Part shown: positions 42,773-55,422 of the stretch, piece by piece
Layout of the letters: every line of letters starts with the position of its first letter
How positions within the stretch are numbered: position 1 is the first letter of the stretch
DNA from: Bacteroidales bacterium
Lineage (GTDB): Bacteria > Bacteroidota > Bacteroidia > Bacteroidales > JAQXIO01
Assembly (NCBI GenBank): GCA_029007825.1
Contig: JAQXIO010000067.1
Coordinates: forward strand, 3,147-67,146
Length of the DNA: 64,000 nucleotides
Reading direction: 5' to 3'
Position numbers and translations under genes: made by a program
The notes under the pieces: generated by a model
What the model saw: only the letters and a program-made list of their open reading frames with translations
What the model was told of the DNA's origin: nothing
The model's database searches: none

Positions 42773-43158
42773 AACGCTTCGCCGCACACCGCATCTGCTT
42801 TTCTCCCGGAGCCTGCTTCGACATCTACTGGATCGGACTTGACGACGACGGCTCCCTCCTCCAACTGGAGCCCCTCGAAAACGAAATAGCCGCAACCGTT
42901 TTCCTCAACGGCTTGATCCTGATGGTTCCCGCAGGGCAATACGCAAGCCCGGAAGAAGCCGAAGAGCAATTCAACCGCTACATAACACGACACCCCCGCC
43001 GGAAACTCACGGAATTTCTGGAAGAAACAGGATTGACCGCCCCACCCCGCATCGGTGGGCACTACTATCCCCTACACCTTGAAAACTTCGATTTCCCTGC
43101 GTCGGAACTCCGCGCAGACAACAGCCGTGGCGACCGCCACGTTAAGCGACTTATCTGA
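42769..43158 (+). CDS. hypothetical protein; last 22 codons lie inside the left 65-bp direct repeat
   Basis: 129-aa ORF with ATGA start/stop overlap with the upstream gene. No motif. Its 3-prime end (FDFPASELRADNSRGDRHVKRL) is encoded by the repeat copy at 43087-43151. Confidence 0.5.
   Translation: MKRFAAHRICFSPGACFDIYWIGLDDDGSLLQLEPLENEIAATVFLNGLILMVPAGQYASPEEAEEQFNRYITRHPRRKLTEFLEETGLTAPPRIGGHYYPLHLENFDFPASELRADNSRGDRHVKRLI
43087..43151 (+). repeat. 65-bp direct repeat, left copy (att-like)
   Basis: ttcgatttccctgcgtcggaactccgcgcagacaacagccgtggcgaccgccacgttaagcgact is identical base for base to 53931-53995. It contains the internal palindrome cgtggcg-ac-cgccacg (43126-43141). Confidence 0.95.
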
Positions 43159-43531: not shown

Positions 43532-45928
43532 CTATCGTGATCTCTCTTCTTCGTTTCCTATCTGTGCCTTTTTTACATTAACCTCTTTTCCTGCACGAAA
43601 ATTCCAACGGGCAGATATTCCAAAAGCACGTCCGGCAATCGATTGATGAGAAATTACAGTTCGGGTGCTTATCCCCGGCTGTTCCATTTCGGCTCTCATA
43701 GTCCATTTACCATTATCAAATATATTATTAACAACAGCCGATACGGTCAATCTATTTTGCAAGAAACTTTTTCGAAGACCCATATCGAACGAGTTATAAG
43801 CCTTTGTTTTCATATTTCCTTCAAGTCCTCCTGACATATAAGAAAAATTAGCTTCTAAACTCCAATTTTTCATGAAAGTAAATATATTATTAATACGGCC
43901 TTGAAATATGCTTTTATTATATTCATAATCATTTACCACGTTTCTTGCATAGGCATATGTCGCATCAACTCCTAATCGCCACCATTTAAAGGGATTAAAC
44001 GGCATATTGAGAGAAGTATAATATTGTTGGGACTTGCCGATATTTTGACTTTGATAAAGAGTAACCTCCGGATTGTCAATGTCTTGCATCATGACTTGAG
44101 CTACCATTCCTTTACCATCAAAAAATCCTAATGTCAATGAATATTTCTGTCTCAAAATACCCGTCACATTGTAATGATTATAATAAGATGGTTGAAGGTC
44201 GGGATTTCCCACTATATAACTGTAACTGCTGATTTGCTGTCGATAAGGATTAAGATTGCTAAAACTAGGACGATCGATGCCTTGACTAAAACTTGCATTG
44301 ATCATATTTCCTTTTTCTTTATTTAAAATATATTGAAGACTGATAAAACCAAAGAAATCTGTGTAATGAAGTTTTTTAACATCTTCCGGATGAGAATATG
44401 AATAAGGATTAACCAAAGTATTTTCCACTCTTAAACCAGCATTCAAATTAATCTTTCCTAAAGAAGCAGATCCATTAATGTAGGCTCCTAAAACACCTTC
44501 TTTGTATATATAATTATCGTCGAGATCAGGATCAGGAATCATATTGCCATCTTCTAATTTCGAATTGATTAATTCTGTGTTCATATTCGTATATGTATAT
44601 TTTATTCCCGTTTCCGCTCGAAATTTCGAATTAAAGATATGATTATAATCCGCCTTAATAGTATACAGATCAGTTTGTCCGTTCCAATCCATCGTATTCC
44701 CCTTTTCAATCGACTGCAACAGATCAAGTTTCTCAAATGAATAACTATCCGAATACCTATTGTTCCGATCATATAGATAATCAGCAATTACTTTTAAATT
44801 AGACCCCTTTTCATCTATGGTAATATTATAATTTAATGATGCCATATATCTATGATTTTTAATATCCGAATCATAAGTACTGGTTAAATCGGAGATCTCA
44901 TCTGAAACTTTTGTGTATCCCGAAGATGGGCTTTGAGTAGCATTATTATTAATTGAATAATCAAAATTTACGCCAATATTCTGTTTATCGGTAATTTCAT
45001 AAACGCTACCCAAACGCCCTGAATAAGATTTTACTTTTGCAGAACCCTTACTTATATTATGAATTTCTCTTTTATTTCCCGTAAGATAATGGGTTAACTC
45101 CTCCACAGTGGACTTAATCTTTTTATCGTCATAATTAAAGTTTGAATAGAAACTAAGTTTATTGATTCGATAATCAAGATTCACACTCGGACGGAGCAAG
45201 GAAGGGAAAATATTTTTTTGCATATTCATATTCATGCCAACAGAACCTGTAAGCCCGGCATTAACCGAACGTTTCAACTTGATCTTAATTACTCCGCCCA
45301 TTGCATTAGCATCATATTGTGCTCCTGCTGTCGGTATAATTTCAATTGAACTTACTTGTTCTGCATCTATGCTTTCCAAATATACCATCAATTCTTCATG
45401 AGACATTTTCAACTCCCGATCGTTTACATAAATCTGCGATACGTTATTGCCGTTAATAGAAAGTCCTTTTCCCCTTGCATACCAGACTCCCGGCGCTAAG
45501 CCCAACAGTTCTAAAGAAGTTCTGCCGATAGCAATGGGCTTTCCTGCAGTAATAAATGTATAGCTATCAGCGGTACGTCGGATCATATCGGCTGTTATCA
45601 TGACATCATTGAGTTGGTTTACAGATTCTTTTAAAATCAAATCACCGATATTTATTTTTCCTTCTACTTTGATTGGCTTTATTAGTGTCTCGTAACCTAA
45701 AAATGCAACCCGTAAAATATAATTATTTTTAGCAATATTTGCTATCTCGAATTTTCCGTCATTATCAGCAACAGTTCCTGAAACTGTAAGGGAATCAGTA
45801 TCTAACAGACTAACTGTAGCAAATGCTAAAGGATTATTCTGTTGATCTTTTATAGTTCCGTTAATGGATTCTCCTAAAACAGGGAAAGATAAGTAAACTA
45901 AAACGAAAATTAATGTGTGTTTTTTCAT
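43532..45928 (-). CDS. outer-membrane beta-barrel protein with CarboxypepD_reg-like and plug domains (TonB-dependent-receptor-like)
   Basis: 798 aa. Signal peptide. INGTIKDQQNNPLAFATVSLLD...DGKFEI (CarbopepD_reg). Plug-like segment (LELLGLAPGV...GGVIKIKLKR). Alternating beta-strand pattern to the C-terminus. Starts 11 nt after the upstream gene. Confidence 0.85.
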   Translation of the reverse strand: MKKHTLIFVLVYLSFPVLGESINGTIKDQQNNPLAFATVSLLDTDSLTVSGTVADNDGKFEIANIAKNNYILRVAFLGYETLIKPIKVEGKINIGDLILKESVNQLNDVMITADMIRRTADSYTFITAGKPIAIGRTSLELLGLAPGVWYARGKGLSINGNNVSQIYVNDRELKMSHEELMVYLESIDAEQVSSIEIIPTAGAQYDANAMGGVIKIKLKRSVNAGLTGSVGMNMNMQKNIFPSLLRPSVNLDYRINKLSFYSNFNYDDKKIKSTVEELTHYLTGNKREIHNISKGSAKVKSYSGRLGSVYEITDKQNIGVNFDYSINNNATQSPSSGYTKVSDEISDLTSTYDSDIKNHRYMASLNYNITIDEKGSNLKVIADYLYDRNNRYSDSYSFEKLDLLQSIEKGNTMDWNGQTDLYTIKADYNHIFNSKFRAETGIKYTYTNMNTELINSKLEDGNMIPDPDLDDNYIYKEGVLGAYINGSASLGKINLNAGLRVENTLVNPYSYSHPEDVKKLHYTDFFGFISLQYILNKEKGNMINASFSQGIDRPSFSNLNPYRQQISSYSYIVGNPDLQPSYYNHYNVTGILRQKYSLTLGFFDGKGMVAQVMMQDIDNPEVTLYQSQNIGKSQQYYTSLNMPFNPFKWWRLGVDATYAYARNVVNDYEYNKSIFQGRINNIFTFMKNWSLEANFSYMSGGLEGNMKTKAYNSFDMGLRKSFLQNRLTVSAVVNNIFDNGKWTMRAEMEQPGISTRTVISHQSIAGRAFGISARWNFRAGKEVNVKKAQIGNEEERSR

Positions 45929-45939
45929 ATCTTAAAAAA

Positions 45940-48111
45940 TCAATATGGAGTAAAAACGAAAAGATTTGACATATACCATCCAATATATTTAGAAATATAA
46001 TTTTGCACCCCAAAATCTTGAATCTTTAATTCATCTTTATATTGCATTAGCATCTTTTGTTTATCATCCTGTAAAGATTTCAATTGACTTTGTCCGCTTA
46101 AAACCAAATATCTGGTCGCATATAGCTCATAATTTAATTTATTATTCTTGTCAAACTCCACCAATGCCAAATTAAGCCATGCTTTAGGCAAATTTGGCAT
46201 CATCTCTAAGGCTTTGGAAATAAATTTTTCTGCTTCTGATTTTCTATCTAGTAAATATAGGCTCTTCCCGATATTCGAAATGATTATTGGATTTTGTTCA
46301 CGCTCGGCACTATTTATCAAGGACTCAATAAGAATGTCTTTTACATAAGGATCTGCATTATCAATTTCCTTCCAATAACAAGAGTTCAGTACAGACGGAT
46401 TATATTTTACCGCTTTAATTAAATAATCAGTCCATTTATTATTATTTTTATTTAAATATAAAATACGTGACAATGATAAATTATATAGAGCATTTTCTGG
46501 AAATTCTTCTACTAAAGTTTTTAGTCTATTTATAGCAACAATAGTATTTCCTCTCTCATAAATCATATAAGCAATATTGTGGTCAAGCAAAGGACTCCTA
46601 TAATAATTGGTTACGCATCGAAAATATTTAATCGCAATATTTAAATTTACAGTATCGTTCATTTCGTAATACTGTTTCCAATACATATATCCCTTGTTTA
46701 TAAAAGTTGGCATAAAATCGTCACAGTCTTTCAATATTTTTAGCGCACTATCAATATTGCCCCCTTCGGCCAATTTTACAGCTTTATCATTAAGTTTATT
46801 AGAGTTGCTTAAAGAAAGAGAAATCGATAAGATGCCTAGGCAAATAATAAAAGGTATAATTGAAATCCATTTAGTTATGTCTTTATTTATTATAAATGTA
46901 TTCTTTGCGTCAATATTCTGAACTGCCGCTAATAGTGTAAACATAACTAATTTCAGAGACATAGAATTCAACAATACCGGAAAAGACAACTCTCTAATCA
47001 AAATTGTTACGGATATAATTAGAAACAGAGGGAAAATAAGATTTAAATGGATCCGTTTAAGCAGATAAACAAAAATTACAATTAAGAATAATAACCATAG
47101 ACTAAATCCAATTATCCCTTTCTCTATCAATAATTGAGATATTATATGGGGAGCGAATGTTGTGAAACTTGTTTTATCAGATTCGTATCTCTTTGTATTT
47201 ATTATTTGAGAAAATGTACCTGAACCAGCCCCGAAGAATAAATTTTCATTTATTTTTTTGAAAGATGCTTTAGATGACAGAACCCTCCCCTCTATACTTT
47301 TTTGTTGGGAGATAGTTTCTGTAAAATTTAAAGTTTGAAAAACTTCCGAAACAAATGGCCTTATTATTAGCAATAGACATATGGCTACACAACAAGATAA
47401 ACATAGTTTAGTAATCAATTTTGTTTTGCTAAATACAAGAAGCAAAAATAAAGATATCAAAAGAAAAATAAACGCAACATAAATCCCTCTTGAAAAGGAT
47501 GTTATTATTCCATATGTTACAGGAATCAAGCAGAAAATAAGTATTATTCTCAATCTTAAAAGTTTTCTACAATATAAAATTGAAAATAGTATTAATCCTG
47601 CAAATCCTAAAAGATACGAACTCCATATATTTATAGATTGGCCTAATGGTTTATATAAATACCTAAATGGATATAGACTGTCAAATTGGGCAATATTATA
47701 AATTAAATCCTCAAAATAGAAAAATGCGACACAACCTAATAATGCTGCGACTCCTATTATTAAACCATAAGAAAATAACAAATATTCAAATTCAACTTTT
47801 TTGTTAAAACATAATCTCAATACCAAATAATATAGCGTGCAAATAACGCTTATTTTTAAGTGTATGAAATTTGTAATGAAATTTACCGATATAAATTGCA
47901 GTATTATTTCGTATAATAATAAAATTACAATTAGCGTATCAATACAAGTAAGACGTAAAACAGCCGATTTTAACTTAATAAATATTACAAAGGATAATAT
48001 AATTCCGATTGAGAAAAACGGATCATTAATCTTTGAAGTTAATGATAATATAAATAAAATTGCTAATAAAAATAGGCTTACTATCAATTGAGGCTTTATA
48101 GATGAAGTCAT
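45940..48111 (-). CDS. polytopic membrane protein with O-antigen-ligase-like (Wzy_C) core and C-terminal TPR repeats
   Basis: 723 aa. About 10-12 TM segments. Wzy_C-type motifs (SFSRGIYVAF ... R..S.K..F.KI....FFGAGSGTF ... FAPHIISQLLIEKGIIGF). The C-terminal ~300 aa have TPR-like repeats (AEKFISKALEMMPNLPKAWLNLALV). Starts 3 nt after the M50 gene. Confidence 0.8.
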   Translation of the reverse strand: MTSSIKPQLIVSLFLLAILFILSLTSKINDPFFSIGIILSFVIFIKLKSAVLRLTCIDTLIVILLLYEIILQFISVNFITNFIHLKISVICTLYYLVLRLCFNKKVEFEYLLFSYGLIIGVAALLGCVAFFYFEDLIYNIAQFDSLYPFRYLYKPLGQSINIWSSYLLGFAGLILFSILYCRKLLRLRIILIFCLIPVTYGIITSFSRGIYVAFIFLLISLFLLLVFSKTKLITKLCLSCCVAICLLLIIRPFVSEVFQTLNFTETISQQKSIEGRVLSSKASFKKINENLFFGAGSGTFSQIINTKRYESDKTSFTTFAPHIISQLLIEKGIIGFSLWLLFLIVIFVYLLKRIHLNLIFPLFLIISVTILIRELSFPVLLNSMSLKLVMFTLLAAVQNIDAKNTFIINKDITKWISIIPFIICLGILSISLSLSNSNKLNDKAVKLAEGGNIDSALKILKDCDDFMPTFINKGYMYWKQYYEMNDTVNLNIAIKYFRCVTNYYRSPLLDHNIAYMIYERGNTIVAINRLKTLVEEFPENALYNLSLSRILYLNKNNNKWTDYLIKAVKYNPSVLNSCYWKEIDNADPYVKDILIESLINSAEREQNPIIISNIGKSLYLLDRKSEAEKFISKALEMMPNLPKAWLNLALVEFDKNNKLNYELYATRYLVLSGQSQLKSLQDDKQKMLMQYKDELKIQDFGVQNYISKYIGWYMSNLFVFTPY

Positions 48112-48114
48112 ATA

Positions 48115-49335
48115 TTAAAGCGTTTTAGCTGCATCATTTATCTTTAGCAAGTGTTTTTTTACAAGCGGATATAAGGTTTTATATAAAACATATACAGTAA
48201 ACATGAAAAAAATAAGTTGCCCGAAACACCTCTGCATCAACTGTAAATCAGGCATGGATCCAGTAGAAATCATAAATATCAATTCCTTTATATGCCCCGG
48301 AAAGGTCCTGAAGAATTTTATTATAAACACAGGTATGAAATATAAAAAATAAAAACCGAAAATCAAGTTAACTAGTATTGTATATATAATTGCAACCGTT
48401 CTTTGCTTTTTTGAAATAGCTAAAAGGTAGGGTCGCTTATTAATAGGCTTTTTAAAAGATCGATTAAAATAATACTTAAATACTTCAGAAGTTCTTTGCC
48501 TTAAGTTGGGAATACCCAATAAATCTGACATAATCCAATAACCATCAAATTTTAAAAATGGATTAAGAGTAATCGCCATATTAATATTTACCGACAGGAT
48601 ATAATACTTTAATATATTATTTCCGGTTTCAGCATATATCAAAAACATGGGAATCAGTAATATTAGTTGAAAATATATTCCCGCTATATTTACCACCATT
48701 TTTTGTAGTTTTGGTAACTGCCATACTTCAGAAACATCGGTGTAAAAAACAGGAAAATTTATATAAAGCCCAAATCCAATTCCTCCGTGATTAACTCCAA
48801 AATATCTGCATGCGGAGGCATGCCCTAACTCATGAAAAAATGAAGATAATATAAACAATCCCAATAATCCGATAATCATATAAAGATCTATCTGGTTAGT
48901 ATTGAATATTGTTAAATTATTCGTAAAAAACAGTATCTCTAAAACCACTATCGCTACCATAATAAGTAACGATATCCATTTATTAAATAATACCTTAAGA
49001 ATATTGGATAATGTACCTATTGTTTTTTCAGAAAGCAGCTCTATATTAAAAATAAATGGAGAAGATTTTTCCTTAGAAGCAGGCTTCAATATTTTACCCA
49101 AACAATTTTCTATTATAGATTCAATTTCTTCATCATTAAATATCCGCCCTTTTTTTGCATAAAACTCTTTCAACCCGTCTATAGATGATTTTTCTTTCAA
49201 AAGATCTATTAACTCAAAGACTGTTTCGTTAATTTCAAAATTTCTTTCTTTATAACATACTATATAGCGCTGATCGACATTCGATGTTGCCAGCTTTCGT
49301 ATTTCAAGCTCATGAATCAATTTGAGATCTACCAT
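48115..49335 (-). CDS. M50-family (site-2-protease-like) intramembrane zinc metalloprotease with PqqD/RRE-like N-terminal domain
   Basis: 406 aa. HExxH in a TM helix (FFHELGHA). Second M50 signature NxxPxxxxDG (NPFLKFDGYW). N-terminal ~85 soluble aa (YIVCYKERNFEINETVFELIDLLKEKSSIDGLKEFYAKKGRIFNDEEIESIIENCLGKIL) have the layout of PqqD-type peptide-binding domains. Confidence 0.85.
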   Translation of the reverse strand: MVDLKLIHELEIRKLATSNVDQRYIVCYKERNFEINETVFELIDLLKEKSSIDGLKEFYAKKGRIFNDEEIESIIENCLGKILKPASKEKSSPFIFNIELLSEKTIGTLSNILKVLFNKWISLLIMVAIVVLEILFFTNNLTIFNTNQIDLYMIIGLLGLFILSSFFHELGHASACRYFGVNHGGIGFGLYINFPVFYTDVSEVWQLPKLQKMVVNIAGIYFQLILLIPMFLIYAETGNNILKYYILSVNINMAITLNPFLKFDGYWIMSDLLGIPNLRQRTSEVFKYYFNRSFKKPINKRPYLLAISKKQRTVAIIYTILVNLIFGFYFLYFIPVFIIKFFRTFPGHIKELIFMISTGSMPDLQLMQRCFGQLIFFMFTVYVLYKTLYPLVKKHLLKINDAAKTL

Positions 49336-49394: not shown

Positions 49395-49583
49395 TTATGA
49401 TACCGGAGAACAAACGTTTTGTTCTGAGCTACACTGAACGGCGCAAAAACAAGCGGCACCGTCAATCCCATCTACAGGGCCAAACAGATCCAACAAGCCT
49501 CCCACCGTAAGAATGTCTGTTTCAAGACGTTTCTCAAGTTCCTGAACAAAAAAATCATCATACAACTGCTCATTAAGAGGCAT
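49395..49583 (-). CDS. candidate RiPP precursor peptide (acidic helical leader, GG motif, Cys-rich C-terminal core)
   Basis: 62 aa: MPLNEQLYDDFFVQELEKRLETDILTVGGLLDLFGPVDGIDGAACFCAVQCSSEQNVCSPVS. Cys at 45, 47, 51 and 58. Lies 65 nt after the rSAM/SPASM gene and 59 nt before the M50 gene, on the same strand. Confidence 0.75.
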   Translation of the reverse strand: MPLNEQLYDDFFVQELEKRLETDILTVGGLLDLFGPVDGIDGAACFCAVQCSSEQNVCSPVS

Positions 49584-49648: not shown

Positions 49649-51052
49649 TTACTGCATAGCCGGCATAACACACTCCTCGTACGCTTTATTAGCAGCATAT
49701 TTAAAGGTATTAGAATAGCCATCACAATAATTGCTGTTTATATCTTTATTTCTTGTAATAGAAAGGTGTAGGCATCCTCCACTACATAGCAGAGCGTATT
49801 TGCACACGGAACAATTTTCTGATCCATTTATATTTCTGGCATGCCATCTACTAAGCTCTGGTGTCCACTGTATTTTATCGGAGTATTTGCCTATTACATT
49901 TTGAGGGTTTCCCACAAGGCTCCAACAGCCATAAATATTTCCATACGGATCAAAAATATAAGAACCGCTTTGGGCTGCACAAAATGTTGAATTTAAATAT
50001 ATCTTCCTTTTTTCTTTAATCGCTTTTGATAATTTATTATATATTCCAAAATCCTGACACCCGTACTTATTACCATTAAATTCTAATTGCTTGTAATTTA
50101 TTCTATTAAATTCTTCTCTATTTAAATAGTTTAAAACAGCGCTTTTATTATTAGCATCGGGAGAATAATCCTTTAACAAGGCCGACTTAAATGCGAATTT
50201 TTCAAATTTACTATATCCAAGTTCGTCGAAATAATTTAAAATTTTTTTAATGTCACTGATGTTATTTTTATCAGTATTGTAACGTATCGCAACAGCTATA
50301 TCTTTTTTTAATGCAATTCCTATATTTTTCACTATCTTATCAAACGATCTTCCCGTTAAATAATGAATACGCCTATTATCATGTTCTTCCTTAAACCCAT
50401 CAATGGTTATCTGCAAAGTATTAATCTTTTCAGGAGAAAGCAGATCTTCATAGTGATCTAAATCATAGCCATTGGTTATAGCCATAAAAGTCATTCCAAA
50501 TTTTTGTGCCCTTGATACTATATATTCTACTATTTCTTTATTTTCTTTAAGTAAAGGCTCTCCCCCATATAAAATACTTTGCCGGCTTCTTAATTCTGCC
50601 CGAGGTTCTATTTGTTCCATTGCATAGAATGCTTTATCAACCAGCTCTTTAGTAAATTTTCTCTTTGTCCATTGATGTCCCTCCCCTGATATCTCGTTTT
50701 CATAACAATATGGGCATCTAAAATTACAATCATAGGAAATTAAAAACATGAAATTTTTAAAAAGGCTTTTATCTTTACGATGCATCAGATTTGCAAGCTT
50801 TTTTACATATTCTCTCTCTTCCCGCAATGTCTTTGTTGTAATATATCCTCTACTAATTAATAATTTCAAAGTATCATCATTTAGGCCATCTGATTGTAAA
50901 TTTATGAAGCTTCCATTTTCCTTTAAATACTTCACTATTTGTTTACTTGCAACATCTATAGCTCCTGTGTAGCCATGAATTAGCATGTATTTTTCCGATG
51001 CTTTTTCTAATTTAATGAAAATAGTATACGAAGATAAACGATAATTAATCAT
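49649..51052 (-). CDS. radical SAM / SPASM-domain peptide maturase
   Basis: 467 aa. CNFRCPYC (Cx3Cx2C at C109/C113/C116) after a ~100-aa N-terminal extension. GGEPLL. Full SPASM Cys pattern: CAAQSGSYIFDPYGNIYGC (with Gx4C), CSVCKYALLCSGGC (Cx2Cx5Cx3C) and a final NYCDGY. Confidence 0.92.
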   Translation of the reverse strand: MINYRLSSYTIFIKLEKASEKYMLIHGYTGAIDVASKQIVKYLKENGSFINLQSDGLNDDTLKLLISRGYITTKTLREEREYVKKLANLMHRKDKSLFKNFMFLISYDCNFRCPYCYENEISGEGHQWTKRKFTKELVDKAFYAMEQIEPRAELRSRQSILYGGEPLLKENKEIVEYIVSRAQKFGMTFMAITNGYDLDHYEDLLSPEKINTLQITIDGFKEEHDNRRIHYLTGRSFDKIVKNIGIALKKDIAVAIRYNTDKNNISDIKKILNYFDELGYSKFEKFAFKSALLKDYSPDANNKSAVLNYLNREEFNRINYKQLEFNGNKYGCQDFGIYNKLSKAIKEKRKIYLNSTFCAAQSGSYIFDPYGNIYGCWSLVGNPQNVIGKYSDKIQWTPELSRWHARNINGSENCSVCKYALLCSGGCLHLSITRNKDINSNYCDGYSNTFKYAANKAYEECVMPAMQ

Positions 51053-51547: not shown

Positions 51548-53380
51548 CTATTCTACTGGAGATCTATAAATATCCGAGAAATAACGAAAAAACAGTTCAT
51601 CCCTGTTTTCGGCAGGATTGAAATGGCCTTCATTCTCGACACGCCGGTAAAGAATACGGTTATTATATTTCTTTGCCTTTTCCACAAATTTGTCCGCCTG
51701 ACTGATAGGAATTTCATTATTACGCGAATGCGATATGAATAAATACGTCTGCGCGGGCAATTTATTTAAACTGTCAATCAAATAATCGGGATAAATCCCG
51801 TTTGAAACTCCAACCCCAGCAGCCAGCGCCGGATTACGCTGGCAGGCACTCAACGCTTTGGTACCACCGGCGCATCCACCCAACAAATAAATACCTCGGT
51901 CGTCGATAGCATAATGCCGTTTCAAATCGCTCAACGCTTCATTCAGATCTGTATCCGCTTCGGCATTGTAAATAAGCTGGGCACGCAAATAAGGAAATAA
52001 CAAAGCAAAACCGTACTCATCGGCAAGACGGTACTCCCAACTAAGGAAATCAATATCCGAAATATACCAGCTAAGAGGCATAATCGGAGGATCGGCAAAA
52101 TAGTAGGGCATATAAATGACCAATGGAACCTTACGGGTGCTATCGGCACATAACTGCGGGGAAATATGGAAAAGATAATATTGTTCCGACGAATCCGACG
52201 GAGATACATACTTTTTTAGAAAAGTTCCCGGTCGGTTGCGCAAAGTCGAACCACTCGAAACAGCCCGGTCTATATCCTGCAATTGAAGCAAAGTCGATAA
52301 TTTATTCCTCGAATTAAATGAAACATCATGCACCCGGTAAGCCGCCGAACGCTGCTCCTTCAAATGATCGTACCGCTGTTGCAGAGAAGAGACATAATCC
52401 CCGGCATCTGCCCTCTCTCCCGATTCGCAATACACCTCTGAAACCAAAGCATCGAAAAACGGATCTATTTCTCCTATAAAACAATACTCTGCCAAAACCG
52501 TATCCGGCAATGATAATTCAGACCGGTACAAACCGTCCGATAATCCTTCGGGAAGCGCTACTTTCCAACTACTATATCTCTCTACAACACCAGCCTCTCC
52601 CGCCGGTAAAGTATTCCGGTCAACCCCGAATTGTTTACAGTCCTGCAAATCATACAATGCAAACCCGACCTTCTCCGAATAGGCGTAAGGCCCCAAATAA
52701 ATCTCCACCGAATCGTCCCTTCCCTCAATAACAGGATCGACAACGAAATCACACCAGTAATCGTTCCGGTAATGACTTCTGGCAACCAGCTCATCCTGTA
52801 CCGAACAATAAAACTCCCAGTGGGAAACACCCTTCTCTACTTCCGTTTGTGAAAGTTTTACAACCACCGTATTATCGCCCTCAGCAAGAGAAGCGACAAT
52901 ATGGTTCTCTACCTGTTTTTTTATATTTCTTTTCCACTGACATGCAAAAATATTCTCCGAATTCAGCCAGACTTCCATCTGCTGCGCAAAGTTAAAACCG
53001 AAAACAACTGTCTTGGCCTGAGAAGAATACACATTAAAAAACAAATACACACACGATGGTTCTTTAACACTTGGAAAAAAATCATTAAAATCAAAATAAT
53101 TCTCCAGATTTGGCGACAAAGTCCGCACCTTAACACCCCGCTTTCTCAAAACATCCAAAGCGGCAAATCCACCTTTATATATTTCCGGATCGAAATTACC
53201 GGATAAATCCGAACAGCTTGCACTATCGATACGGAGCGGAAACGAAGCACAAACCTTATTTATCACTACTTCCGAATTGCCTTCGGAAAAATCGACCGAA
53301 AACCGGGGGGTTTTTGTACATGAACAAATCAGCACACAAAAAACAGGGAAAACTCGAAAGAAAATACATGTGGTTTTCAT
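51548..53380 (-). CDS. lipoprotein with C-terminal alpha/beta-hydrolase-like domain (Cys at nucleophile-elbow position)
   Basis: 610 aa. Lipobox LICSC. C-terminal ~200 aa are esterase/peptidase-like with IYLLGGCAGG where GxSxG is expected, and a late His (ENEGHF). Confidence 0.7.
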   Translation of the reverse strand: MKTTCIFFRVFPVFCVLICSCTKTPRFSVDFSEGNSEVVINKVCASFPLRIDSASCSDLSGNFDPEIYKGGFAALDVLRKRGVKVRTLSPNLENYFDFNDFFPSVKEPSCVYLFFNVYSSQAKTVVFGFNFAQQMEVWLNSENIFACQWKRNIKKQVENHIVASLAEGDNTVVVKLSQTEVEKGVSHWEFYCSVQDELVARSHYRNDYWCDFVVDPVIEGRDDSVEIYLGPYAYSEKVGFALYDLQDCKQFGVDRNTLPAGEAGVVERYSSWKVALPEGLSDGLYRSELSLPDTVLAEYCFIGEIDPFFDALVSEVYCESGERADAGDYVSSLQQRYDHLKEQRSAAYRVHDVSFNSRNKLSTLLQLQDIDRAVSSGSTLRNRPGTFLKKYVSPSDSSEQYYLFHISPQLCADSTRKVPLVIYMPYYFADPPIMPLSWYISDIDFLSWEYRLADEYGFALLFPYLRAQLIYNAEADTDLNEALSDLKRHYAIDDRGIYLLGGCAGGTKALSACQRNPALAAGVGVSNGIYPDYLIDSLNKLPAQTYLFISHSRNNEIPISQADKFVEKAKKYNNRILYRRVENEGHFNPAENRDELFFRYFSDIYRSPVE

Positions 53381-53915: not shown

Positions 53916-54680
53916 CTATTTTTTCGGAAATTCGATTTCCCTGCGTCGGAACTCCGCGCAGACAACAGCCGTGGCGACCGCCACGTTAAGCGACTCTGAC
54001 GTAACACTGTCAGGCGGAAAATTCGGAATATAAAGCCGGTGCGTCAGAAGGGCATCCACCTCCGCACTGATACCGTTCCCCTCGTTCCCCATAACGATCA
54101 TACCCTTTCCGTCCAGTTTTTCACCATACAGGTTATTACCGTCCAGAACGGTTCCGTAAAGAGGCATATCCAACGTTTTCAGAAACGGTACAAGATCAGT
54201 ATAATGCACCCTCACGCGTGCCAGCGCACCCATCGTAGCCTGCACCGTCTTCGGGTTATACACATCCGCGCACTGGTGCGAACAAAACACCTCGCCGATA
54301 CCGAACCAATCCGCCAGACGGATAATCGTACCCATATTGCCCGGATCCTGCACCCCGTCCAACGCCAACGACAATTTCCCTTTCAGCGCCTCCCTGTCCG
54401 GCTCGTAAACCGGTTGGCGGAATACTGCCAGCACATCCTGCGGCGACTTCAGCAGCGAAGCGCTACGGATATCCTGCTCGTCCGCCACCACTAACTCCTC
54501 CGTATGTAAATCGCCCTGCGTAGCCATCCATTGCGGCTTTGCCACCAGCAACTCACACTCGAAATGCCCTAACAGGTCGGCCACTAATTTATTCCCTTCG
54601 GCAAGAAAAACACCGTACTCATCCCGAAACTTCTTTTTCTCTAACGACTTAATATATTTGATTTTATTCTTACTCAGCAT
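53916..54680 (-). CDS. TrmH/SpoU-family RNA 2-prime-O-methyltransferase
   Basis: 254 aa. SpoU motifs DPGNMGTIIRLAD, MGNEGNGIS and SLNVAVATAVV. The last ~21 codons before FPKK-stop lie in the right 65-bp repeat. Confidence 0.9.
   Translation of the reverse strand: MLSKNKIKYIKSLEKKKFRDEYGVFLAEGNKLVADLLGHFECELLVAKPQWMATQGDLHTEELVVADEQDIRSASLLKSPQDVLAVFRQPVYEPDREALKGKLSLALDGVQDPGNMGTIIRLADWFGIGEVFCSHQCADVYNPKTVQATMGALARVRVHYTDLVPFLKTLDMPLYGTVLDGNNLYGEKLDGKGMIVMGNEGNGISAEVDALLTHRLYIPNFPPDSVTSESLNVAVATAVVCAEFRRREIEFPKK
53931..53995 (+). repeat. 65-bp direct repeat, right copy (att-like), inside 3-prime end of TrmH-family gene
   Basis: Identical to 43087-43151. On the minus strand it encodes SLNVAVATAVVCAEFRRREIE. 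Confidence 0.95.
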
Positions 54681-54705: not shown

Positions 54706-55146
54706 TTATAAGGTTAGCACTTGGGTAAACTCATTATTTTTTTGAAAGTCATCATCCCATATAAATTTCACTTTAATTGTTTTCGGAAATCCCACTATTA
54801 ATCGAAATATCACTTCAGTCGAATCTTGAGGATTTAACAATTCATAAGGAAATGGGTTTTTAAATATATCTAAACGGTCAGCATTACTTATTAACTCAAA
54901 TCGCACATTTAATGCCTTAGATCGCCCCTTATTATATACTTTTAATGTTCTTGGCCCTTTTCCTACTTTTACAATATTTCCTCTTATCTGAGCCTTTTTT
55001 ATCTCAAGTTCTTCTATTTCGTTCTTTTTAAGTTGATAATCATTTAATTTTCTTTCTTGTTTTTTCAACTTATTATCATGAAATATAAAAGTAAAAATAC
55101 CAAATAATAAAGCAATACATGCCACAATAAGACTAGCTAATTCCAT
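54706..55146 (-). CDS. hypothetical membrane-anchored protein
   Basis: 146 aa. One N-terminal TM helix, a Lys/Glu-rich coiled segment, then a beta-rich C-terminal domain. AT-rich. Starts 3 nt after the upstream ORF. Confidence 0.55.
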   Translation of the reverse strand: MELASLIVACIALLFGIFTFIFHDNKLKKQERKLNDYQLKKNEIEELEIKKAQIRGNIVKVGKGPRTLKVYNKGRSKALNVRFELISNADRLDIFKNPFPYELLNPQDSTEVIFRLIVGFPKTIKVKFIWDDDFQKNNEFTQVLTL

Positions 55147-55149
55147 ATT

Positions 55150-55422
55150 TCACTTAAATCTTATAAATTTATTTCCACTGAATATTTTCCTAAATTTTCT
55201 AGTAATATCTTCTTCAATCTCAGCACTAATCTCCGCTTTAAATGAATCCACTCCTTCCAGAATTGTTCCTTCATTTAATTCAACCAATTCATCATACCCT
55301 CCCGGATATTCCCTATTACAAAGATTACATTTAATATGACTTCTATCCTCATCAAATTCAAAATCTTCACCACCACATGTTATACATCTAAGAATAATAT
55401 TTCTCGTATAATATTTTTTCAT
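55150..55422 (-). CDS. hypothetical zinc-ribbon protein
   Basis: 90 aa with CITCGG ... CNLCNREY (CxxC-x17-CxxC) and an acidic C-terminal half. AT-rich. Confidence 0.55.
   Translation of the reverse strand: MKKYYTRNIILRCITCGGEDFEFDEDRSHIKCNLCNREYPGGYDELVELNEGTILEGVDSFKAEISAEIEEDITRKFRKIFSGNKFIRFK

Follow-up and report, generated by a model that had tools for sequence, protein, structure and literature searches.

Membrane-bound M50 enzymes have an established place in the maturation of peptides that are made on the ribosome and modified after translation (RiPPs), the reviewed cases being EpeP/YydH, TglG/TmoG and MpaP. According to the review, EpeP works together with a radical S-adenosylmethionine (rSAM) enzyme and is believed to link cleavage with export, and TglG/TmoG are carboxypeptidases that act on a scaffold peptide. 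Fusions that join a RiPP recognition element (RRE) to a peptidase were described for the daptides by Ren et al. (2023, bioRxiv 10.1101/2023.03.08.531785), who termed MpaP "an RRE-dependent intramembrane peptidase"; the daptide leader carries the motif ELExMEAP and is cut directly after it. Here we describe a gene of this general type in a stretch of 64,000 nucleotides (the window) on contig JAQXIO010000067.1 of a Bacteroidales bacterium, together with the cassette in which it lies. With a probability of roughly two in three, the encoded protein is an inner-membrane M50 zinc metalloprotease that carries a cytoplasmic, divergent PqqD-type RRE of ~92 residues, belongs with MpaP to a superfamily of RRE-fused leader peptidases, and serves an rSAM/SPASM pathway. 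The gene and its parts are the following.

48115..49335, minus strand: gene of the RRE-M50 fusion, a putative leader peptidase (open reading frame (ORF) with ATG start, 406 amino acids (aa))
49060..49335, minus strand: soluble N-terminal domain (N-domain), residues 1-92, predicted to be cytoplasmic and very probably a divergent PqqD-like RRE (fold model, profile chain and topology)
48820..48834, minus strand: HELGH zinc-binding and catalytic motif, residues 168-172, at the predicted cytoplasmic end of transmembrane helix (TM) 2 (motif search and model)
48541..48564, minus strand: NPFLKFDG, second motif of site-2 proteases (S2P), residues 258-265, after TM4, with the third zinc ligand Asp264 (motif search)

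A preliminary description of this DNA had proposed an RRE-fused M50 leader peptidase and had taken the architecture as unusual. The concept is supported but already known, since the architecture has been published for daptides. What is new is a large, uncurated clade in the Bacteroidota and the wider Fibrobacteres-Chlorobi-Bacteroidetes (FCB) group, with rSAM/SPASM enzymes, leaders of the type LN..ELEERLETDPL, and Wzy_C/TPR and outer-membrane protein (OMP) partners. Neither this clade, nor the pairing of rSAM/SPASM with such leaders, nor the partnership with Wzy_C/TPR and OMP proteins is described in the literature that was searched, and the cassette is not described in a paper on RiPP mining in the Bacteroidales. 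Searches of the literature on the leader motif and on PqqD together with M50 yielded nothing relevant.

The protein is polytopic, the N-domain preceding the membrane part. As stated earlier, the HExxH motif lies in a hydrophobic helix (residues 151-178 in the AlphaFold model), and 49 aligned homologs of 39-53% identity show no variation at H168, E169, G171 and H172. The second motif, for which the pattern NxxPxxxxDG had been given, is indeed present and retains the P-x4-DG spacing of the S2P enzymes, but the literal pattern does not hold: the motif is a variant, N-P-x4-D-G, in which the N stands immediately before the P. In the same alignment T256, L257, N258, P259, D264, G265, Y266 and W267 are invariant, so that the motif reads TLNPFxKFDGYW. 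Hydropathy and the AlphaFold model indicate about six TM helices overall (~119-138, 149-178, 209-237, 240-256, ~320-338 and ~374-392), the HExxH helix included, and not some six in addition to it. A beta-hairpin (residues 186-199, strands 186-191 and 194-199) is predicted after the HExxH helix, at the position of the re-entrant loop of S2P enzymes. Lys and Arg counts (positive-inside rule) assign the N-terminal 119 residues, the loop 257-319 and the C-terminus to the cytoplasm, which places both catalytic motifs at cytoplasmic helix ends.

The AlphaFold2 model of the full-length protease (predicted local distance difference test, pLDDT, 87.8) has SpoIVFB (8vjl) as its top Foldseek match, with a probability of 1.00 and an E-value of 0.012. 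The window protease stays below the gathering score of the Pfam M50 family PF02163 (18 vs 27.2 bits); members of its family lie above that threshold (P0239 with 31.0, P0248 with 30.1 and L068 with 28.4 bits, and many more among the precomputed matches). Its best NCBIfam match is the model of the daptide protease MpaP, NF041824 (daptide_HExxH), with 98.5 bits and over residues 97-292 only, followed by YydH/LiaK (NF058609) with 60.9 bits. Both scores are under the curated cutoffs of 300 and 225 bits, respectively, and no protein of the cassette attains an NCBIfam cutoff. The invariant motifs, the SpoIVFB fold match and the two best curated matches support the earlier identification of the protein as an M50/S2P-type zinc metalloprotease, the nearest curated relatives of which are RiPP leader peptidases. 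The family is large (~1000 clusters at 90% identity), and relatives are present in at least 565 species-representative genomes, mostly of Bacteroidales but also of Elizabethkingia, Balneola, Saprospiraceae, Ignavibacteria, Latescibacterota and Kryptoniota.

The N-domain (residues 1-92) is soluble, and it is conserved throughout the ~1000 homologs, with the consensus TSS..KYL..Y..R.FEV...VA.LI..LQ.S.S..E......G..YTE.....II.K.I.PI. A short helix is followed by strands at 11-15, 23-28 and 31-35 and by helices at 37-49, 52-61 and 68-83; AlphaFold runs on the full-length protein and on the domain alone agree on this beta3-alpha3 arrangement (pLDDT 81-91), in line with the soluble N-terminus of strands and then helices that had been read from the sequence. 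The order strand-strand-strand-helix-helix-helix is that of RREs. Against PqqD (5sxy) Foldseek returned a probability of 0.77, template-modelling scores of 0.49/0.50 and a root-mean-square deviation of 3.4 Å over 73 columns. High query-based template-modelling scores (TMq) were also reached by the RREs TigE, LynD and McbB, which rank near the top, and TbiB1 was matched as well when the full-length model served as query. By probability or template-modelling score the best matches are RREs, none of them significant. In its predicted three-strand/three-helix fold the domain resembles PqqD and other RREs (5sxy, 3g2b, TbiB1 5v1v, LynD 4v1u, McbB 6gri and TigE 8vpo), but it differs from the solved RREs in its low identity to them (10-14%), in the lack of a significant direct sequence or profile match, and in being fused to a membrane protease.

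A link to recognised RREs is provided by relatives of the M50 enzyme. A tblastn search of plasmids gave four kinds of such relatives: annotated mpaP genes of Streptomyces (H8 and H3), the alignments of which begin at residues 21-24; a Bacillus cereus "peptidase" with radical SAM and SPASM genes as neighbours, for which the alignment spans residues 23-287; a protein from a thiopeptide cluster of Anoxybacillus (WP_066327528.1); and a PqqD-M50-HlyD protein of Pontibrevibacter (WP_166194579.1). The latter two are both annotated as "PqqD family peptide modification chaperone", and in both PF05402 precedes PF02163 (32.2 bits in Anoxybacillus and 24.1 bits in Pontibrevibacter, vs a gathering score of 23.4). 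The daptide protease model is matched by all four kinds; for the proteins of B. cereus, Anoxybacillus and Pontibrevibacter the match starts at the N-terminal positions of the model. A profile of the full-length window family aligns colinearly with the Streptomyces MpaP, B. cereus, Anoxybacillus and Pontibrevibacter proteins over residues 19-321 (Prob 99.9%, E 1.5e-35).

For the N-domain itself the comparison by hhalign runs in two steps. Its profile matches the N-domains of the B. cereus-type M50 family of the Bacillales with Prob 97.4% and P 9.9e-12 over 76 columns. That Bacillales N-domain in turn matches PqqD (Prob 73%, P 3.1e-5) and the two Pfam-positive PqqD-M50 fusions (P 7.9e-4); reversed-sequence controls gave P 0.26-0.4. 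When the window N-domain alone was compared with the PqqD-M50 fusions, the result was not significant (P 0.04-0.3). On fold and profile homology the N-domain therefore very probably belongs, as a divergent member, to the lineage of RREs that fronts this branch of the M50 enzymes; confidence stops short of certainty because the chain relies on one small intermediate family. Binding of the leader by the domain, which we infer, is graded lower than fold and homology. The PqqD-type reading of the preliminary description is supported by the model, the RRE matches in Foldseek and the profile chain via the Bacillales M50 enzymes, while a direct hidden Markov model (HMM) match fails. A search of 1.84 billion representative proteins with the N-domain profile gave 244 matches (E <= 0.001). 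Among the best 150 of these 244, the full-length proteins carry the domain at the N-terminus of a ~400-aa M50 enzyme; five inspected short matches are contig-end fragments, and the remaining short ones were assumed to be likewise. The domain was not found standing alone or on other enzymes among the matches listed.

The same search of plasmids showed that proteins of E. coli, Citrobacter, Kosakonia and Eleftheria annotated as "HlyD family efflux transporter periplasmic adaptor subunit" hold a homologous M50 core (H27, H35, H37-H40). The search matched 97 plasmid records, 17 of which are from E. coli. The triple fusion of PqqD, M50 and HlyD in Pontibrevibacter is 713 aa long (L090:5374-7515).

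The protease gene belongs to a cassette of six genes, all on the minus strand, in the order lipoprotein, rSAM/SPASM, precursor, RRE-M50, Wzy_C/TPR and OMP barrel. The two genes that bear most directly on its function are given here.

49395..49583, minus strand: precursor peptide of 62 aa, with the leader PLNEQLYDDFFVQELEKRLETDIL..GG and a four-Cys core, CFCAVQC...C (ORF and leader family)
49649..51052, minus strand: radical SAM/SPASM peptide maturase of 467 aa, with an N-terminal extension of ~100 aa that is probably an RRE of its own (Pfam Radical_SAM and NCBIfam SPASM domain)

Eighty-seven homolog loci were compared, 55 of which have sufficient flanking DNA. The same leader family occurs in 61 of the 87 loci (69 distinct peptides), and an rSAM gene in 59. 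Restricted to the well-flanked loci, the rSAM gene is found in 47 of 55, a Cys-rich precursor with the leader motif in 45 and both in 42. The preliminary description had raised the possibility that homologs occur mostly without adjacent peptides; they overwhelmingly adjoin precursors and rSAM enzymes, so this objection to its reading falls away. The leaders of the 69 precursors have the consensus s.nn.l..ef..eeLEeRLETDPL..gg in common, and the cores contain four Cys as the median. The leader motif can be written as LNxxLxxEFxIxELEERLETDPL, and the corresponding segment of the window precursor is FVQELEKRLETD. In the Ignavibacteria, the Latescibacterota and some Flavobacteriales the GG is absent and RLE[MLT] is directly followed by the Cys-rich core, which marks ELE-x-RLE as the recognition core. 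Some loci hold three to four precursor genes in tandem (L020:9154-9924, L062:16201-17091, L064:14795-15375 and L066:7364-7630), and one ORF of L066 has two successive copies of the leader ahead of a single core.

The rSAM enzyme matches NCBIfam models of the CefB/TIGR04463/FlmE/PapB type below their cutoffs. Its best match in the PDB is the thioether-forming CteB (5wgg), residues 84-445 being aligned to 84-434, so that the N-terminal extension, noted before as ~100 aa, is present and equals that of CteB in length. An hhalign comparison of the N-domain of the protease with that of the rSAM enzyme detected no similarity (Prob 2%); if both are RREs, they are therefore not recent duplicates.

The arrangement suggests the following pathway. 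The rSAM/SPASM enzyme, with its own putative N-terminal recognition domain, would first cross-link the Cys-rich core of the 62-aa precursor. On the cytoplasmic side of the membrane, the leader segment LNxxLxxEFxIxELE-x-RLETDPL would next bind to the RRE of the protease by adding a strand to it. The precursor would then be cut at or shortly after the leader motif by the HELGH/Asp264 site, which lies where TM2 and TM4 reach the cytoplasm.

How close is this to the daptide system? Like MpaP/DapP of the daptides, the window protein would have a ~100-aa N-terminal RRE on an M50/S2P core, and the HExxH motif has a similar offset (residue 168 vs 179-210 in relatives). The leader motifs are also alike, ELExMEAP in daptides and ELE-x-RLETDP in the cassette; this likeness fits recognition by homologous RREs and, by analogy, suggests that the cut falls at RLETDP(L) or just beyond it. 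On the other hand, the two proteases are only ~22% identical, the score of 98.5 bits lies far below the 300-bit family cutoff, and the predicted RRE of the window family, unlike that of MpaP, is too divergent for detection by HMMs. The cassette lacks the DapB fusion of a domain of unknown function to an RRE (DUF-RRE), the alcohol dehydrogenase, the aminotransferase, the methyltransferase and the ATP-binding cassette (ABC) transporter of daptide clusters. Its modifying enzyme is an rSAM/SPASM protein, its core is Cys-rich, and the window precursor ends in ...SPVS and not in Thr. Finally, MpaP belongs to the Actinomycetota and Bacillota, the present family to the Bacteroidota and the FCB group.

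The nearest relative outside the FCB clade is the M50 enzyme of Bacillus, Paenibacillus and Brevibacillus (QGV10561.1 on plasmid p1 of B. cereus JHU; locus L089). It shares the radical-SAM/SPASM peptide setting, but is 27% identical, uncharacterised and represented by ~10 clusters, and its cluster has ABC/FtsX export genes and no Wzy_C/TPR or OMP partners. The PqqD-M50 fusions have the identical domain order, and their M50 core also matches daptide_HExxH; in contrast to the window protein, they serve other RiPP classes (thiopeptides) or add a HlyD adaptor domain. EpeP/YydH (epipeptide) and TglG/TmoG (pearlin) resemble the window protein as membrane M50 enzymes that process RiPP precursors. The YydH/LiaK family appears to be without a comparable N-domain, because its profile has 246 positions and the window match starts only at residue 106.

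Several observations weigh against an RRE-fused leader peptidase. In the literature searched the RRE dependence of MpaP itself is based on prediction and heterologous production. About half of the leaders have a GG ~4 residues past the motif, which may indicate C39-type cleavage by the product of a gene elsewhere. The homology chain hangs on a single small intermediate family of nine sequences. All Foldseek E-values of the N-domain exceed 0.2, none being significant, and sequence searches of Pfam, NCBIfam and the PDB with the N-domain, alone or as a profile, gave no match. No PqqD match was obtained with any of the queries used, i.e. the domain alone, 30 members singly, a 30-sequence profile and 10 distant full-length members. 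A direct hhalign comparison of the N-domain with a three-sequence PqqD profile was weak (P 0.0096), though in the correct register.

The GG leads to the first of three other explanations, namely that a C39 enzyme or peptidase-containing ABC transporter (PCAT), or a periplasmic protease, encoded elsewhere cuts at GG, and that the M50 enzyme is engaged in second-step trimming, leader degradation, immunity or export. Many Bacteroidales leaders do show xxGG(L) a few residues past RLETDPL, EpeX is still produced in B. subtilis after deletion of EpeP (review), and the island in which the cassette lies includes a 610-aa lipoprotein with a weak hydrolase-like region. We nevertheless consider this explanation unlikely: only about half of the leaders have the GG, which is absent from members of the Ignavibacteria, Latescibacterota and Flavobacteriales, the gene of the 610-aa protein is not conserved with the cassette, there is no ORF with an ABC signature in the window, and the nearest curated relatives of the M50 enzyme are leader peptidases.

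The failure of direct PqqD matches would suit another view of the N-domain, as a winged-helix-like module with no part in leader binding that acts as a gate or regulatory domain, or as a dock for the rSAM enzyme or the Wzy_C/TPR protein. S2P enzymes often carry regulatory soluble domains, such as PDZ in RseP and CBS in SpoIVFB, and among the matches listed the N-domain is restricted to this M50 family. The secondary-structure order is, however, that of an RRE and not that of a classical winged helix-turn-helix, the best structural matches are RREs, and profile homology ties the domain to N-domains of relatives that are Pfam-positive for PqqD or positive in RRE-Finder. Its most conserved residues moreover lie on beta3 (R-x-F-E-V, RNFEI in the window) and alpha1, and the leader groove of RREs includes beta3. 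A non-binding module is thus quite improbable in our judgement. Less probable still is a signalling site-2 protease that controls expression of the cassette through regulated intramembrane proteolysis of a membrane regulator. Classically, bacterial M50 enzymes, RseP and SpoIVFB among them, carry out such proteolysis, and SpoIVFB is the top Foldseek match. Yet no sigma or anti-sigma factor or other single-pass regulator was found in the island, the protease is without a PDZ or CBS domain, it scores much higher on RiPP protease models than on RseP, and it is tightly linked to precursors. Leader removal by an RRE-fused M50 enzyme remains our preferred reading.

The other genes of the cassette are the following.

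45940..48111, minus strand: polytopic membrane protein of the Wzy_C (O-antigen-ligase-like) type with a TPR domain at the C-terminus, 3 nt downstream of the protease gene (Pfam Wzy_C 4.2e-13 and TPR)
43532..45928, minus strand: beta-barrel of the outer membrane, CarboxypepD_reg + Plug + OMP_b-brl_3, at the end of the cassette (Pfam 1.3e-87)
51548..53380, minus strand: predicted lipoprotein of 610 aa (MKTT...LICSC) with a weakly alpha/beta-hydrolase-like C-terminus, inside the island and upstream of the rSAM gene

A Wzy_C homolog is found in 59 of the 87 homolog loci, in the Bacteroidales nearly always immediately after the M50 gene, and the OMP barrel in 36. In the peptide pathway the Wzy_C/TPR protein may act in export, in lipid or glycan attachment, or as a scaffold. 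No homolog of the 610-aa lipoprotein was detected in any of the 87 loci; its hydrolase region is weak and S9/PHB-depolymerase-like, and its gene has a GC content of ~42%, above that of the rest of the island. At other loci unrelated proteins of 636-663 aa stand at the edge of the cassette.

In a Prevotella/Segatella clade no stop codon closes the RRE-M50 gene, which runs on through a signal-peptide-like segment, KKAMAAVAILFAVVPNAGAQQ, and into an OMP-barrel homolog (L062:9983-13264, L063:3142-6426, L064:9983-13267, L066:2552-5836, L067:9983-13267 and L069:11-3196). The C-terminal part of this single ORF of ~1094 aa matches the cassette OMP with Prob 99.8% (hhalign). These ORFs had been considered as M50-Wzy fusions, which was rejected since hhalign shows the C-terminal part to be the OMP barrel. 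It is odd for a protease of the inner membrane to share a reading frame with a protein of the outer membrane, and signal peptidase may process the product.

The preliminary description had remarked on the absence of a C39/ABC exporter, and no ORF with an ABC signature was indeed found in the 64-kb window. Related Gram-positive clusters retain ABC exporters beside the RRE-M50 gene, which makes it unlikely that the protease itself is the exporter; the translocation that the preliminary description had thought conceivable is speculative. Better candidates for an export route, although speculative ones, are the Wzy_C/TPR and OMP partners and the M50-OMP readthrough of Prevotella/Segatella. Taken further, RRE-M50, Wzy_C/TPR and OMP barrel could form a dedicated trans-envelope machine of the Bacteroidota, in which the leader is cleaved at the inner membrane and the product passed across both membranes. 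This idea is doubtful; if true, such a machine would replace the route via PCAT or ABC transporter, membrane fusion protein (MFP) and TolC of other Gram-negative RiPP systems, and the Prevotella/Segatella ORF joining M50, signal peptide and OMP would be a fossil of the coupling of protease and export.

The entire cassette is contained in an island bounded by a direct repeat.

43084..43151, no strand assigned: left copy of a 68-nt direct repeat bounding the low-GC island (repeat search)
53928..53995, no strand assigned: right copy of the 68-nt direct repeat, equal to the 3' end of a SpoU-family methyltransferase gene at 53916-54680 (repeat search)

The two copies are identical at 67 of 68 positions and spaced 10,844 bp apart, and the island between them (43.15-53.93 kb) has a GC content of 28-33% vs ~50% outside. 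The arrangement looks like a site-specific insertion into the end of the methyltransferase gene; no integrase was identified among the six long ORFs of the island. Just beyond it, next to the methyltransferase gene, lie two small low-GC ORFs (54706-55422, minus strand), one of 146 aa with an N-terminal TM helix and one of 90 aa with two CxxC pairs (zinc-ribbon-like), neither of which was assigned to a family. At four loci from human gut metagenomes (L001-L004) the cassette adjoins genes for an integrase, a DDE transposase, RteC and HTH_17, neighbours that are typical of conjugative or mobilisable elements of Bacteroides. In L001 the rSAM gene is gone, the peptide and the protease being kept. 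At another locus (L070) the cassette resides on the 18.8-kb Muribaculaceae plasmid CP061010.1.

The RRE-fused intramembrane leader peptidase, first seen in daptides, appears to act for a large family of radical-SAM peptides as well, one that is often carried by mobile DNA and occurs mostly in Bacteroidales of the gut and mouth. The RRE of its protease and, in the window protein, also the M50 domain escape the current models of Pfam and NCBIfam; the conserved leader motif and the N-domain profile can be used to mine for such clusters. In the literature searched we found for no M50 enzyme direct biochemistry on the docking of a leader to a soluble RRE coupled to intramembrane cleavage, and precursor, rSAM enzyme and protease make up a compact system in which the coupling of leader docking to cleavage within the membrane could be studied. 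To a RiPP specialist the architecture as such will be unsurprising, but the family that carries it is widespread in human-associated Bacteroidales.

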